A stretch of DNA of 64,000 bases from Promethearchaeati archaeon (lineage in GTDB: Archaea; Asgardarchaeota; Heimdallarchaeia; Heimdallarchaeales; Heimdallarchaeaceae): assembly GCA_013166775.1 (NCBI GenBank), contig JABLTJ010000001.1:160001-224000 (forward strand), read 5' to 3'. Position 1 is the stretch's first letter; every line of letters starts with the position of its first letter. Under the pieces are notes generated by a model, which saw only the letters and a program-made list of their open reading frames with translations, ran no database searches and was not told the origin of the DNA. The translations under genes were made by a program, and so were the position numbers. This document shows positions 5,729 to 58,343 of this stretch, piece by piece.

Positions 5729-6256
5729 TCATGATCTCAGATTGTCCTTAATCTGTTTCGAGATTATTTGTTGTATCCAATCGCGATTTGTTCTATCAAT
5801 GTTGTAAAGTTTTACATCTGATCTGGTTTTGATTTCCTTTGTAAAAGAATTATCTCTCATCATAATTGTTCCAAACACTTTTTGTTCTTCTAAGCTATTT
5901 AACAAGAATTTTTTAAAATTCAGTGAGAACAATTCCATTTTACCAATTTCATCTATAACAATCATACTATAAGATTTCTTTCTGCCTTCTTCTTCCAAAA
6001 TCTCAACAATAAAATCAACATTCTCCACAAAAACACAATATTTTCCTACTTTATGTTTGCAAATTTTTTCTTCTTTTGATGCTAATAACTTACTTACTCC
6101 AGTTAAAGTTTCAATAGTAAATCCGTGTCGACTACTCCCTTCTCGTAACTCTTTTGTCACAAATCCAATTGCACTTATTTTAAGTGCTTTCAAGATTTGA
6201 GTTATGAGAGTAGTTTTTCCGATCCCTGGTAAACCAGTAATTAGAATATTGTTCAT
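5729..6256 (-). CDS. Nucleoside-triphosphatase THEP1/NTPCR family
   Basis: ITGLPGIGKTT, GFVTKELRE, IVIDEIGKMEL. Confidence 0.92.
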   Translation of the reverse strand: MNNILITGLPGIGKTTLITQILKALKISAIGFVTKELREGSSRHGFTIETLTGVSKLLASKEEKICKHKVGKYCVFVENVDFIVEILEEEGRKKSYSMIVIDEIGKMELFSLNFKKFLLNSLEEQKVFGTIMMRDNSFTKEIKTRSDVKLYNIDRTNRDWIQQIISKQIKDNLRS

Positions 6257-12689: not shown

Positions 12690-13298
12690 ATGATTTACAT
12701 GTTCCTAAAGAGATTCTTCAAATCGATTATTGGTTTTATTACATGTACTGTTGTTGTTGTTCTGTTGCTTTACATTATTTGGCCAACTATAGATATGGTA
12801 GAATTAATTGGTCTAAACAATAATATGAAAGCAGATAATGGAACTGGTGGTCATTTCTGGGTTATTTTGCTAATGCTGTTAGTTGTAAACATGTTTTTGA
12901 AAATTGGTATTCCTTTGCCAGATATTTTATCTTCATACAGTATTGATAATCAATTCGGAAATCCAAGAATGTATATTTTAATAATCTTCATCTGGTTGAT
13001 TGGCTCTTTTGCAGGAGGATTAGCATCCAGAGGAGGTCTCAGATCAGGAGCATGGTCTGCAATTTTGTCATTCCTATTTCTTGATTTTATATTCGCAACA
13101 ATGACAGCATCAATGGGTTTGACGTTTGTAGGTTTGAATGGTTTTTCCCTATTTATTGTGATATTTCTAGCAACTTTGGTTCTAGGATCATTTATCTTTA
13201 TACCAATAATTGGGTTAATAGGAGGAATTGCCGGTGGAATCCTTGGTAAAATGCTTTTTAGAAAGGAAAAGCGATTGAAAGATCAAGACGAGGAGTAA
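12690..13298 (+). CDS. Multi-pass membrane protein with Gly-rich helices
   Basis: About 5 TM segments; GLIGGIAGGILG glycine zipper. Confidence 0.7.
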   Translation: MIYMFLKRFFKSIIGFITCTVVVVLLLYIIWPTIDMVELIGLNNNMKADNGTGGHFWVILLMLLVVNMFLKIGIPLPDILSSYSIDNQFGNPRMYILIIFIWLIGSFAGGLASRGGLRSGAWSAILSFLFLDFIFATMTASMGLTFVGLNGFSLFIVIFLATLVLGSFIFIPIIGLIGGIAGGILGKMLFRKEKRLKDQDEE

Positions 13299-13479
13299 CA
13301 ACAAAATTTCTCCATGATTATCTCTCTCAGTTAGTTTCCGGGAAATAAAAACCTTAATATAATTACGAGTTCTGATTCTTTATCTTCTTACTTAGTTTTT
13401 TAAGAAATCTTAATACAGAATTTTTTAAACAAAATAGTAAAGTGTTTATTCTATTAAACAGATAAGAAATTTCTTCGAG

Positions 13480-13487
13480 TTTATAAA
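13480..13487 (+). promoter_or_regulatory. TATA box of the candidate ncRNA
   Basis: TTTATAAA starts 29 nt upstream of G13509, the first base of the first hairpin. Confidence 0.55.
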
Positions 13488-13508
13488 TCAAACTATAGAT
13501 TATTTTAT

Positions 13509-13700
13509 GAGACTTAGGTCTCTTACTGAGTTAAGCCATTGACTTAAGTAAAAGGAAACTTGCTGAAAGATCTAGAAGACAGAAAGAATTGGATAAACGG
13601 AAATCAATGGTTCAGAATAAGGTTCAGTTTTAGATCTTCGCTAAACCTCAGAAATTGTTTGAATTATTCTTAGGATTCTGATTAGCTTCAGCAAGCTTTT
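13509..13700 (+). ncRNA. Unassigned highly structured ncRNA (~190 nt)
   Basis: Five helices plus two possible pseudoknots; G-U wobbles work only on +; TATA upstream and T-tract downstream (details in findings). Confidence 0.7.
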
Positions 13701-13726
13701 CTTTCTTTTTCTTTTTCTTCTTTTCT
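13697..13726 (+). terminator. Archaeal poly-pyrimidine/T-tract terminator
   Basis: ttttctttctttttctttttcttcttttct directly after the closing helix. Confidence 0.6.
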
Positions 13727-13857
13727 AATTAACAAGAACAATATCCATTTCAAGACACAAGAAAAAGATATAATATACGTCTATGAATAGAAATAACAGA
13801 GAGGTGATTTGACTGAAGAGTGGTGTATGTAAACATTACGTTGGGATTAGTGCAATA

Positions 13858-15231
13858 TTGGTAATCCTAATAGGGTTGACTACAACAATAATTGGATGGG
13901 AGAATGTATCTGAACTCACCTTTCCTATAGGTGCAATTCAACCTTCAAGCAAAACCTCTTCCACTCATGTGCCTATTAATATCCTCTCTGACCAAAATTT
14001 TACTGATTATGGCTTTCCAGGAACAGGAACGAGAACAAATCCTTACAGAATAGAAAATTATTCTATTAACACAACAGAAGAGAAAGCAATCAATATCCAG
14101 AATGTGAGTAAATCGTTCATTATCCAACATTGTTTTGTAACTGCAGAGAGATATGGGATATATGTGGAAAATGCTGTAGGAGATACAACCATTATTAGGG
14201 ACAATGAATGCACAAAATGTTGGGATGGGATCTCTATTACCCTAGGGGGAAGTGTAGCTATTATTAATAACACCTGCTATCAGAATGAAAATTATGGTAT
14301 TAGAGCTTATGACATCTATGATTATGTTCTCGTAGTAGAGAATAACTGCTCTTATAATGGGAGGGGATTAGTAGCACATAAAATTAGAGATGCAAAAGTA
14401 TACGATAATCTATGTACATTTAATATTTTTGAAGGAGTAATTATATGGGAAACAGTTGCTATTGTTTATCAGAATGTTTGTGACTTTAATAATGATGGGA
14501 TAACTACAAGGATAACACCTCCTGCACTTATTTACAACAACACATGCAAGAACAATACGGAAAGTGGAATAAGATTATTTGGAGCATCGGATTCTATTGT
14601 TACTAACAATACTTGTGTAAATAATAGGAATGGGATTTATAACATAAATTCTTTCCATACTAAAATCATTAACAATGCCTGTTTTAAAAATGAATATGGC
14701 CTTTTCTTTGATATTGGCTCATGGTATTGCACCGTTTCAGAGAATGATTGTTTTAATAACACCCAAGCAGGTATTGCTCTAGCTCCTTCAAGATTTAGCA
14801 AAATATCAAATAACACTATTCACTATAATCAAGGCTTTGGGATTTATTCAGAAAGAAGTTTAGAGTGTATTATAACTTACAATTTGATTGAAAATAATGA
14901 TGATTATGGAGTGTATTTGGAAAATACAACCAATAAAACACAAATTGCTTACAATTACTTGCTTAACAACAATCCCTCAGGAACTTCTCAAGGCTATGAT
15001 GCAGGGAAGAATAATAACTGGTTTGATGAAGAGAACAAAGCAGGAAATTTTTGGTCTGACTGGAAGGGAAGGGGAAAATATAAAATTGCTGGTCCAGCAG
15101 AATCTGTGGATAAATATCCTTTGAATGAGCAATTGGAGAGGGTGTCTAGTCTTTCCTTTTTATGGCTTAGCCTCTCATTCTTTCTGCTTACTCTCCCAAT
15201 TTTTAGCAAAAAATTGATCAAGAATAATTAA
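13858..15231 (+). CDS. Membrane-anchored right-handed parallel beta-helix (NosD/CASH) surface protein
   Basis: N-terminal hydrophobic stretch, repeated NNTC.NN..GI units, GNFWSDW, C-terminal TM + basic tail. Confidence 0.85.
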   Translation: MVILIGLTTTIIGWENVSELTFPIGAIQPSSKTSSTHVPINILSDQNFTDYGFPGTGTRTNPYRIENYSINTTEEKAINIQNVSKSFIIQHCFVTAERYGIYVENAVGDTTIIRDNECTKCWDGISITLGGSVAIINNTCYQNENYGIRAYDIYDYVLVVENNCSYNGRGLVAHKIRDAKVYDNLCTFNIFEGVIIWETVAIVYQNVCDFNNDGITTRITPPALIYNNTCKNNTESGIRLFGASDSIVTNNTCVNNRNGIYNINSFHTKIINNACFKNEYGLFFDIGSWYCTVSENDCFNNTQAGIALAPSRFSKISNNTIHYNQGFGIYSERSLECIITYNLIENNDDYGVYLENTTNKTQIAYNYLLNNNPSGTSQGYDAGKNNNWFDEENKAGNFWSDWKGRGKYKIAGPAESVDKYPLNEQLERVSSLSFLWLSLSFFLLTLPIFSKKLIKNN

Positions 15232-15271
15232 ATCCTATAACTATCTAACTTCTTTCTTCTGTTTTAACCAC

Positions 15272-15544
15272 TTGAGGTGTTTTTCTAAACACATTACTCG
15301 CTCTAGTCAAGGACGGTTCGTTTGCCACCAGTGCAAGTATGGACTCAATGCTGATTTGAACAGTGCAAGGAACATAGCTAAAAGGTTAATTACCTATGTC
15401 TTAAATCCAAGTGGAGCGTTCAAAACAAAGAACATACTTCGTGACTATCTTTCTGGAGATTTTCATGATTTGGAGGAGTATGGAAGCTTTAATCCCTTAG
15501 GCCAGTGGCTTAAGTATTCCTCAGGGGATACATCGTTTCTGTAG
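15272..15544 (+). pseudogene. tnpB: 5'-truncated tnpB (IS200/IS605/IS607-type RNA-guided nuclease) remnant
   Basis: Partial zinc finger RC...RFVCHQC followed by NADLNSARNI (RuvC-III); no RuvC-I/II upstream. Confidence 0.85.
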
Positions 15545-15550
15545 ATTCGA

Positions 15551-15703
15551 TGGGACAGGTGATATGAGTTACCTCTTGTAACAGGAGATGATTCCCAAGG
15601 ACAGGTTTTCTGTTTTTCAACAGCTGATACCGGTCTAGGATGAGTCCTGAAACGTTCTTTACAATTTCTAGTAAGAAGTTGTCGGAGAAAGTAACTCATA
15701 CAC
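15551..15703 (+). ncRNA. Putative TnpB omega-RNA / transposon right-end structured RNA
   Basis: TATGAGTTAC(15563-72)/GTAACTCATA(15691-700) closes several nested hairpins directly after the tnpB stop. Confidence 0.65.
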
Positions 15704-34264: not shown

Positions 34265-34366
34265 TGGTAGCGCCGAATGGACTTGAACCATTGATCTTCG
34301 GGTTTCTCAACCTTTAAGGTTAGAATTTATGAGCCCGACGGGTTTTCCATGCTACCCCACGGCGCT
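34265..34366 (-). tRNA. Initiator tRNA-Met(CAT) with 24-nt intron (34304-34327) at 37/38 and encoded CCA
   Basis: AGCGCCG/CGGCGCT acceptor stem with A1:U72, GGG/CCC anticodon stem, CTCATA|A loop, TTCAAGT T-loop, BHB with CTCA/TGAG central helix. Confidence 0.97.
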
Positions 34367-57954: not shown

Positions 57955-58343
57955 AGAATAGATATATTTTATTCATATAAAAATATCAAGTTCATTATTT
58001 GAATATACTGCAAATATTGAAATAACTTCAACCAAAAATGAGCCAAAAGTATTTTTTTCTGGAATGGGTGAATTCTTCTCAAACAGATATCTTTAACACT
58101 TTCAAGGACCCTAGATAATATTGAAGTTATATGTTAAAGCAGAAGACAATAAGAAGAGCAAGTTATTTCTTTAATGATGAATTAGATGAAAAGGATGTTC
58201 AAGCAATAACTAAGAAGCCTACAAGATCTATTTATGAACGTGTTGCTACAAAATCTCGGAAATGGATGAAGTACATCAAACTTCGCTTGAAGAACTCCTA
58301 ACCCATTTTTCCTGTTTTTCAGTAAATTCATAATTACAATTTA

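Follow-up and report, generated by a model that had tools for sequence, protein, structure and literature searches.

Cas12 descends from TnpB elements, which are known to require one RNA, the right-end guide. This omega RNA or reRNA (the sotRNAs of IS1341-type tnpB) shares sequence with the 3' part of tnpB and extends to the right end of the element, and the flank serves as its guide (PMC8612924, PMC4615843). In IStrons, a group I intron is found at the left end of TnpB elements (bioRxiv 10.1101/2023.11.20.567912). The IscB/IsrB omega RNA (HEARO, RF02033) is encoded upstream of the effector, in the left part of an IS200/IS605-family element; it lies directly at the left boundary, and its guide comes from the flank. 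IS10 RNA-OUT and IS200 art200 are cis-antisense transcripts of approximately 70-90 nt that overlap their target and limit the translation of transposase. The sRNA41 of Methanosarcina mazei and RsaE/RoxS of Firmicutes are C-rich, anti-Shine-Dalgarno (anti-SD) sRNAs, which are chromosomal regulators of metabolism.

The locus studied here lies in a 64,000-nt stretch of an Asgard (Heimdallarchaeota) genome, and this whole stretch is referred to as the window. The RNA is located in a gap of 560 nt, which is bordered by a membrane-protein ORF (12690-13298) and a NosD/beta-helix ORF (13858-15231). In the labels, G denotes congeneric Heimdallarchaeota MAGs, C contigs and L loci, whereas "own" refers to the genome of the window. 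The preferred reading, of moderate confidence, is that the locus is a non-coding RNA gene that forms the left-end module of TnpB-ended mobile islands, and that its product would act in trans and mask the ribosome-binding site (RBS) of tnpB.

The left-end RNA resembles the omega RNA/reRNA in being structured, non-coding, 150-250 nt long and encoded by an IS200/IS605-type TnpB element. However, it lies at the opposite end, 1 to more than 10 kb from tnpB, and is preceded by a promoter of its own. Between the boundary and its start lie 150-190 nt, and beyond its 3' end comes cargo, not the flank. The covariance model of the family (R1) had no match in the right-end regions. Identity with the omega RNA/reRNA was rejected because of the wrong end and the lack of a flank-derived guide. 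A structured RNA at the left end of a TnpB transposon is also present in the IStron, but the RNA studied here has a separate promoter, and no match to the group I intron (RF00028) was obtained in Rfam at E <= 10. Moreover, the left-flanking gene was on the opposite strand in the five islands checked (C38, G006, G024, G013, G007), and splicing from a host transcript is therefore impossible. The IStron was thus rejected, given the missing group I core and the wrong strand. The left-side position upstream of the effector is shared with HEARO, but here that effector is a TnpB, which has a right-end RNA region of its own. No Rfam match was obtained, and a HEARO-type RNA was rejected.

Two further comparisons concern the mode of working. 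Like RNA-OUT and art200, the left-end RNA is a transposon-encoded small RNA proposed to pair with the RBS of a transposon gene, but it is trans-encoded, 215 nt long and conserved in its fold, and it would presumably target the TnpB nuclease instead of the transposase. It shares with sRNA41 and RsaE/RoxS a CCUCC-type motif that is predicted to be exposed and could occlude Shine-Dalgarno sequences, whereas it is larger and transposon-borne, and the window copy is without the motif. In its presumed working, the left-end RNA would be most like RNA-OUT/art200 and the anti-SD sRNAs. In the literature search, such an RNA was not described.

The features of the window copy and of the insertion around it are the following.

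13316..13467, + strand: left-end region of the inserted element, directly after the flank ...TTTCTCCAT
13468..13492, + strand: BRE/TATA-type promoter TTTCTTCGAGTTTATAAATCAAA, approximately 25 nt upstream of H1, conserved
about 13505..13699, + strand: RNA, window copy of approximately 195 nt, placed by model R1, with a presumed transcription start
13509..13522, + strand: H1 hairpin GAGAC/GTCTC, conserved
13523..13551, + strand: H2 hairpin, conserved
13562..13584, + strand: 5' strand of the closing stem, GCTGAAAGATCTAG ... GACAGAA, from the family alignment
13601..13613, + strand: invariant block AAATCAATGGTTC, identical in 8 of 8 members
13640..13695, + strand: rearranged 3' third, from the model-based alignment
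13696..13726, + strand: T-rich tract, read from the sequence
13858..15231, + strand: NosD/parallel beta-helix cargo gene inside the insertion (Pfam NosD 6.8e-32, Beta_helix 6.5e-28)
15272..15544, + strand: TnpB C-terminal stub, last 90 or so amino acids (tblastn, 75.6% identity to residues 448-537 of the G006 TnpB)
15545..15699, + strand: transposon right end, matching that of the G006 element at 90% identity

The left-end region showed 76% homology to the sequence upstream of the RNA in G013, L043 and L046, the BLAST match to G013 beginning at window position 13322, and carried the near-palindrome TTTCCGGGAAA. The left boundary is ambiguous by 3 nt because CAT occurs at both junctions. Within the promoter stretch, TTTATAAAT occupies 13481-13489. 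The T-rich tract, which from its letters is a possible archaeal terminator, was peculiar to the window copy, and the other members had no comparable tract. The right end contained a subterminal hairpin (ACAATTTCT/AGAAGTTGT) and the terminus ...GGAGAAAGTAACTCAT; its junction with the adjoining flank ACACACATTTTT was fixed by the empty-site comparison. By its position, this right end is the region where the TnpB guide RNA scaffold would be expected. Elsewhere in the window (34268-34366, minus strand), a tRNA gene spans 99 nt against a 71-position model (52 bits) and probably contains an intron.

The RNA family was searched for by BLAST, the covariance model and pattern scans, and eight members and one distant paralog were obtained. 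Two members (window and contig C38) and the paralog belong to the own genome, and nhmmer found exactly these three copies in the whole of it. Four of the 24 congeneric genomes (G006, G013, G024 and G007), all deposited as Candidatus Heimdallarchaeota MAGs, gave one member each by BLAST, and two metagenome contigs with a member (L043 and L046) were found by the pattern scans. The family is thus restricted to 5/25 genomes of one genus and two metagenome contigs. Model R1 had no match in the 22 other genomes of the order, and the family was not found in viral contigs. The C38 copy aligned with the window copy at 92% over 182 nt in BLAST and was 97% identical to it across 13498-13620. The window copy scored 150.5 bits with model R1 (E = 1.8e-32, full model length); the model recovered the copies found by BLAST and added the paralog as the third copy of the own genome, at 31 bits. 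A match in G005 was discarded as a chance match within an ATP-grasp gene.

The paralog lies outside the window, at C1:282338-282547 of the own genome (locus L031:1501-1710), and has the same promoter as the family. Its closing stem GCUGGAA/UUCCAGC is a compensatory change relative to GCUGAAA/UUUCAGC, and a hairpin loop GCUUG occupies the position of the ACCUCC of the family. It stands directly after a HEPN-domain gene, and its island also holds DUF7019, SAP and HerA-like genes.

In cmscan searches, the RNA was matched by no Rfam 15 family, whether the query was the window (gathering score), 13250-13900 (E <= 10) or the six homologous loci (E <= 5). A comparison with Rfam and a collection of homologs had been advised by the first-pass annotation; the former returned no match, and the latter yielded seven homologs and the paralog, all from Heimdallarchaeial genomes or metagenome contigs. 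Of its proposal, the following was upheld: the genome is that of an Asgard archaeon (Heimdallarchaeota), and its + strand carries the gene of a non-coding RNA that has a separate archaeal promoter and belongs to no catalogued family. It had also seen no sign of SRP or RNase P RNA, which agrees with the results, since both RNAs are located elsewhere in the own genome and these identities were thereby ruled out. An uncatalogued, structured RNA family of approximately 215 nt is very probably real.

The fold of the window copy was compared with those of seven homologs and the paralog. In the seven intact members, the RNA of approximately 215 nt consisted of H1, H2 and then a rod. In the rod, GCUGAAAGAUCUAG and GACAGAA paired with UUCUGUC and CUAGGUCUUUCAGC near the 3' end. 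The rod comprised 20 bp (a closing stem of 13+7 bp; nucleotides ~58-80 against ~190-215) and enclosed a branched interior with the invariant block AAAUCAAUGGUUC, one or two hairpins and the unpaired UUU(U)ACCUCCU. On the model-based alignment, 91% of the cells were paired versus 31-47% with slid partners, and the same core fold was given by an independent MAFFT/RNAalifold run. H1, H2 and P1 were conserved across the family, and P1 was part of the closing stem. The promoter motif was kept in 8/8 members and in the paralog.

The changes in the helices were mostly one-sided and of the wobble type, and they were legal only on the + strand; the remark at first pass that the wobbles fit the + strand was borne out by these changes among the homologs. 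G-U and U-G variants of H1 occurred in C38 and G007. In H2, a compensatory change from G-C to A-U was found in G007 and wobble-to-Watson-Crick changes in G013, and the 5' strand of the closing stem was invariant or changed by wobbles only. Truly compensatory changes amounted to approximately three pairs only among the seven intact members, with the window copy and the paralog left out, and the covariation was thin because the members are closely related. The predicted folding energy of the + strand gave z = -2.2, a modest support in that 4/200 shuffles folded as well. The value for the minus strand was z = -3.3, which is beyond that of the + strand, and hence energy alone leaves the strand undecided.

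These helix changes also bear on whether the locus could be a small-protein gene with a leaderless mRNA from ATG 13507. An ATG or TTG is present at the predicted transcript start in all members, and longer open frames occur in G024 and L043. Nevertheless, the frame in the window stops after 11 codons, and one-nucleotide indels, judged by eye, shift the reading frame over the invariant block, so that it differs between G024, L043 and the window. Furthermore, the substitutions preserved helices and not codons, and a protein product is scarcely conceivable.

All of the elements on which the first-pass annotation had built its model (TATA, H1, H2, P1, P2, P3, two long-range complements and the T-tract) were present in the sequence where it had placed them. 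Its helices were reproduced by the + strand centroid fold, which gives H1, H2, P1, P2 and P3; P2 and P3, however, do not belong to the fold of the family. The rearranged 3' third of the window copy lacked the 12-nt UUUACCUCCUGAAAU (ACCUCC) region of the family, and about 10 nt were missing from the 3' strand of the closing stem. The family partners were kept only by GCTGAA (with 13687-13692) and CAGAA (with 13676-13680). The rearranged part formed the copy-specific P3 and retained TTCAGCAAG (13687-13695) as P1. ACCUCC was invariant and predicted to be unpaired in 7/8 members, the window copy being the exception, and no ACCTCC motif was found anywhere in the window. In the folding model, the 5' strand of the closing stem, freed by the deletions, can pair with UUUUAGAUCU (i.e., P2), and the new hairpin P3 can form. 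P2 was possible only in the clade of the window, C38 and G006, where it competes with the closing stem of the family, and both P3 and the AGAATAA/TTATTCT pairing occurred in the window copy only.

Hence, the three-way junction proposed at first pass arose from the loss of sequence in the 3' third of this single copy; the proposed switch is likewise no part of the family fold. Of the two proposed pseudoknots, AGAATAA/TTATTCT is confined to the window copy; for AGCCATTGA/TCAATGGTT, the complement was lost in G024 and L043 (CAGCTGA) despite an invariant partner, and the pairing is therefore unsupported. Nothing points to a ribozyme or a sensor. The first-pass model of a stand-alone RNA of a new Asgard class, be it a ribozyme, a scaffold or a sensor, with its three-way junction, switch and pair of pseudoknots, would agree with the in silico folding of the window copy into P1/P2/P3, with the lack of an Rfam match and with the visible constraint on the 5' two-thirds. 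This reading is nevertheless very unlikely, because the other members either lack P2, P3 and the two pseudoknots or give them no support, the gene lies within a 2.4-kb insertion, and the distribution is limited to 5/25 genomes of the genus and 0/22 others of the order.

Only about four-fifths of the promoter region was identical, and the TnpB stub was about 80% identical to its relatives, versus the 97% identity of the 5' two-thirds of the RNA to C38. Selection or gene conversion has therefore kept the 5' domain constant. Half of the rod and the ACCUCC region were lost and tnpB is only a stub; consequently, the window copy is either a functionally altered variant or a decaying relic.

The position of the RNA was established by comparison with empty sites. 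Window position 13314 is joined directly to 15697 in the closest relatives, G019 and G006, where the empty site is TTTCTCCAG/ACACACATTTT. The 2.4-kb insertion (~13316-15699) contained, in order, the left end, promoter, RNA, beta-helix gene, TnpB stub and right end. The RNA, which had been taken for stand-alone, is instead the left-end module of this TnpB-bounded insertion, and the insertion is absent from the closest relatives. In the layout of the island family, the flank ...CCAT is followed by a left end of 130-190 nt, the BRE/TATA promoter, the RNA, the cargo, the leader with tnpB, the right end ...GTAACTCAT and again the flank. The RNA was at the left junction of the island in 6/6 genomic members, and empty sites or matching flanks were found for 6/6.

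In the G006 island, TTCCAT is followed by the RNA cassette, a CHAT fragment, the 330-nt leader, an intact TnpB with a Cas12f1-like TNB domain and ...GTAACTCAT; its site is empty in own C76. The left flank of C38 and the right flank of a TnpB right end (end of C27) are adjacent in G019, at the site ATATCCAT/TACTATTCCTCC. For G024, the left junction (C23) and the right junction (C103) both map just upstream of the L44e gene in own C76. G013 C117 and C63 map to own C76:22472 and 22507, the junction base being not exact, and for G007, the matching positions upstream of atpA are own C1:21596 for C12 and 21787 for a right-end remnant on C2. The junctions of the C38/C27, G024, G013 and G007 islands lie on separate contigs, and each was taken to be contiguous because its two junctions share an empty site.

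The left flanks end in TCCAT, TCCAT, TCCAT, ACCAT and GCCAT (CCAT in at least five), and the right ends of the islands finish in CTCAT. Together, these are the signature of an IS200/IS605-type insertion beside a target motif. The terminus GTAACTCAT was read in five elements (window, C27, G006, G024 and G013), and G007 has only a diverged right-end remnant without the exact terminus. A tnpB gene, a shared right end and a subterminal hairpin, by which a TnpB transposon is recognized, were all found. The first-pass annotation had held that a match to an IS end would speak against its RNA; the RNA is not an IS terminal repeat, yet it belongs to a transposon. Y1 TnpA (PF01797) was not found in the own genome, which is 89% complete, and elements with TnpB of the same family but without the RNA occur in G001, G022 and G017. 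The genes next to the RNA differ at every locus and no conserved neighbouring protein gene was found; the cargo (HEPN, CHAT, YgjP/hsdR, HerA-like, SAP, RING and DUF7019) is often defence-like. A displaced 3' fragment of the RNA, in the style of tRNA-type integration, was found neither in the genome nor in the window. On these comparisons, there is high confidence that the RNA family is a left-end module of TnpB islands.

Several further observations concern the islands. The insertions of the window, C38 and G006 show no target duplication. A 9-nt repeat (ATCAGTCAC) in G024, at the start of the left end of the island and at the start of the right flank (L041 ~2610-2625; L084 3383-3392), resembles a target duplication, and the first left-end bases of G006 and C38 also resemble the right flank. 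Target duplication is not expected for IS200/IS605 elements. An ORF of 72-78 aa without a Pfam match (...YKLGKVDLETENAYLAIIDNFTD..WVPKSV..IKQWFINQKDKELKDF) is common only to G013 (C117:37985-38221, minus strand), G024 (C23:9930-10136) and own C1 (280322-280543). It is immediately downstream of the RNA and convergent with it in G013 and G024, and lies in the island of the paralog in the own genome. Several islands are inserted at, or a few bases from, the start codon of a divergent host gene (ATP-grasp, Pat-like acetyltransferase, L44e, atpA), with left junctions at L028:~1374, L039 rc 4590, L041:~2600 and L038:~6560. Such an insertion displaces the native promoter and 5' UTR of the host gene, and the left end would therefore have to provide signals for outward expression; its reverse strand shows CGGAG and TATA-like runs.

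The inverted repeats might also act at the DNA level, as single-stranded structures for transposition, with any transcript being incidental. IS200/IS605 elements move as one specific DNA strand, the cassette starts exactly at the insertion boundary, and strand-specific G-T "wobbles" would suit a DNA hairpin as well. However, the structured part begins 150-190 nt inside the boundary, and its repeat arms are approximately 130 nt apart, unlike the short subterminal hairpins of the right end. The sequence between the boundary and the promoter is of two unrelated types, which also disagrees with a DNA structure. Moreover, all copies keep the BRE/TATA motif approximately 25 nt before H1, and a protein-coding ORF in G022 is preceded by the same motif. 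An action as DNA is thus considered unlikely.

According to the preferred reading, the RNA would be transcribed from its own BRE/TATA promoter and would act in trans. The intact members are predicted to expose UUU(U)ACCUCCU, which would serve as a copy of the 16S rRNA 3' end and would pair with the tnpB RBS of the own element. The 16S rRNA of the own genome ends in ...CACCUCCU, and ACCUCC equals this 3' end. The tnpB RBS AGGAGGUAAAA was conserved in G006, G013, G024 and G001. Between UUU(U)ACCUCCU and the RBS AGGAGGUAAA(A) of the same element, the complementarity was perfect over 10-11 nt. Another 5-6 bp were possible just upstream of the RBS, where the sequence differs among G006, G013 and G024 and the pairing is kept. 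The match and these extra pairs together suggest that the RNA would mask the tnpB RBS and hold down TnpB translation. Predicted energies of the RNA/tnpB duplex were -18 to -21 kcal/mol, compared with -11.4 for the 16S end. In the own genome, GGAGGT occurs in the RBS position at 83 ORF starts only, and AGGAGGTAAA at 3 only. By the crude measure of duplex energy, 828/3,908 GGAGG sites in the genome scored at least as well as the tnpB RBS, and 259 sites had a 10-nt complementarity to the loop region. The tnpB RBS is invariant among the elements. The window copy kept the promoter and the 5' two-thirds and lost the presumed working motif, in an element from which tnpB was lost as well. The conserved structure of 215 nt is far beyond the needs of RBS masking, which counts against the masking reading, and repression of TnpB translation by the RNA is proposed tentatively.

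The tnpB genes of the island family have a conserved non-coding leader of approximately 330 nt upstream, which was located in G006 L039 (reverse strand, rc 5803-6135), own C93:9465-9800, C27:5131-5465, L084, L085 and L087. It contains long hairpins (AAGAATTAC...GTAATTCTT and ATCAxTGGTTCCTCT...AGAGGAACCAxTGAT), an unusually strong RBS (AGGAGGTAAAA) and a TTG start, and possibly represents either a structured 5' UTR or, in the basic insertion sequence, the inner left end. The invariant block of the RNA was complementary to a strand of the leader hairpin, perfectly over 11-12 nt in the more distant elements C93 and C27; such a complementarity was reached by 3-18 of 400 random controls, and the closest leaders (G006, G024 and G001) had a central mismatch to the block. 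Full-length RNAduplex comparison of the RNA with the tnpB leaders was no better than that with random genomic segments, and nhmmer detected no homology between the RNA cassette and the tnpB leader above shuffled controls. In the 16S rRNA of the own genome, an insert of approximately 33 nt with a perfect 16-nt palindrome (CTAGAAGATCTTCTAG) lies inside helix 45, just before GGATCACCTCCT; it was seen on the minus strand of own C52 (near 58087-58160) and at the start of C35. Either a genuine expansion, a mini-insertion or an artefact of the assembly could explain this insert.

The exposed loop also allows a different target. The RNA could be a passenger sRNA at the left edge of the island that acts not on tnpB but on host or island genes, such as defence genes or the few mRNAs with a strong Shine-Dalgarno sequence. 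The ACCUCCU loop complements any strong SD, and the cargo is rich in defence-like genes (HEPN, CHAT, YgjP/hsdR, HerA and DUF7019). The RNA persists in the window and in G007, where tnpB was lost, and G007 retains ACCUCC; furthermore, the paralog in L031 differs in its loop (GCUUG) and adjoins a HEPN gene. Against this stand the position at the extreme left end in 6/6 islands with two types of upstream sequence, which is unlike random cargo, and the perfect 10-11 nt match to an RBS type that is found on only about three other ORFs. A passenger sRNA therefore has some chance of being correct but is doubtful. Regarding the preferred reading, it is possible, although not probable, that the left-end RNA is an integral working part of Asgard TnpB (OMEGA) transposons, either as a dedicated repressor that limits the translation of TnpB or as a factor by which the outer left end is set. 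If it were a factor of the latter kind, a simple tnpB insertion sequence could mobilise kilobases of defence cargo.

For annotation, the "empty" gap of 560 nt is explained, and window positions ~13316-15699 are marked as recently acquired DNA in a lineage close to eukaryotes. The new RNA family is narrower in distribution and more ordinary in architecture than was first proposed. What was unexpected is that it consistently marks the left end of cargo islands bounded by TnpB, and this is worth following up. If the proposed role is true, a second conserved RNA, kept at the left end despite the decay of tnpB, would add a regulatory or structural layer to these elements, and it would show how a minimal insertion sequence grows into a cargo island that moves defence genes between archaeal genomes.
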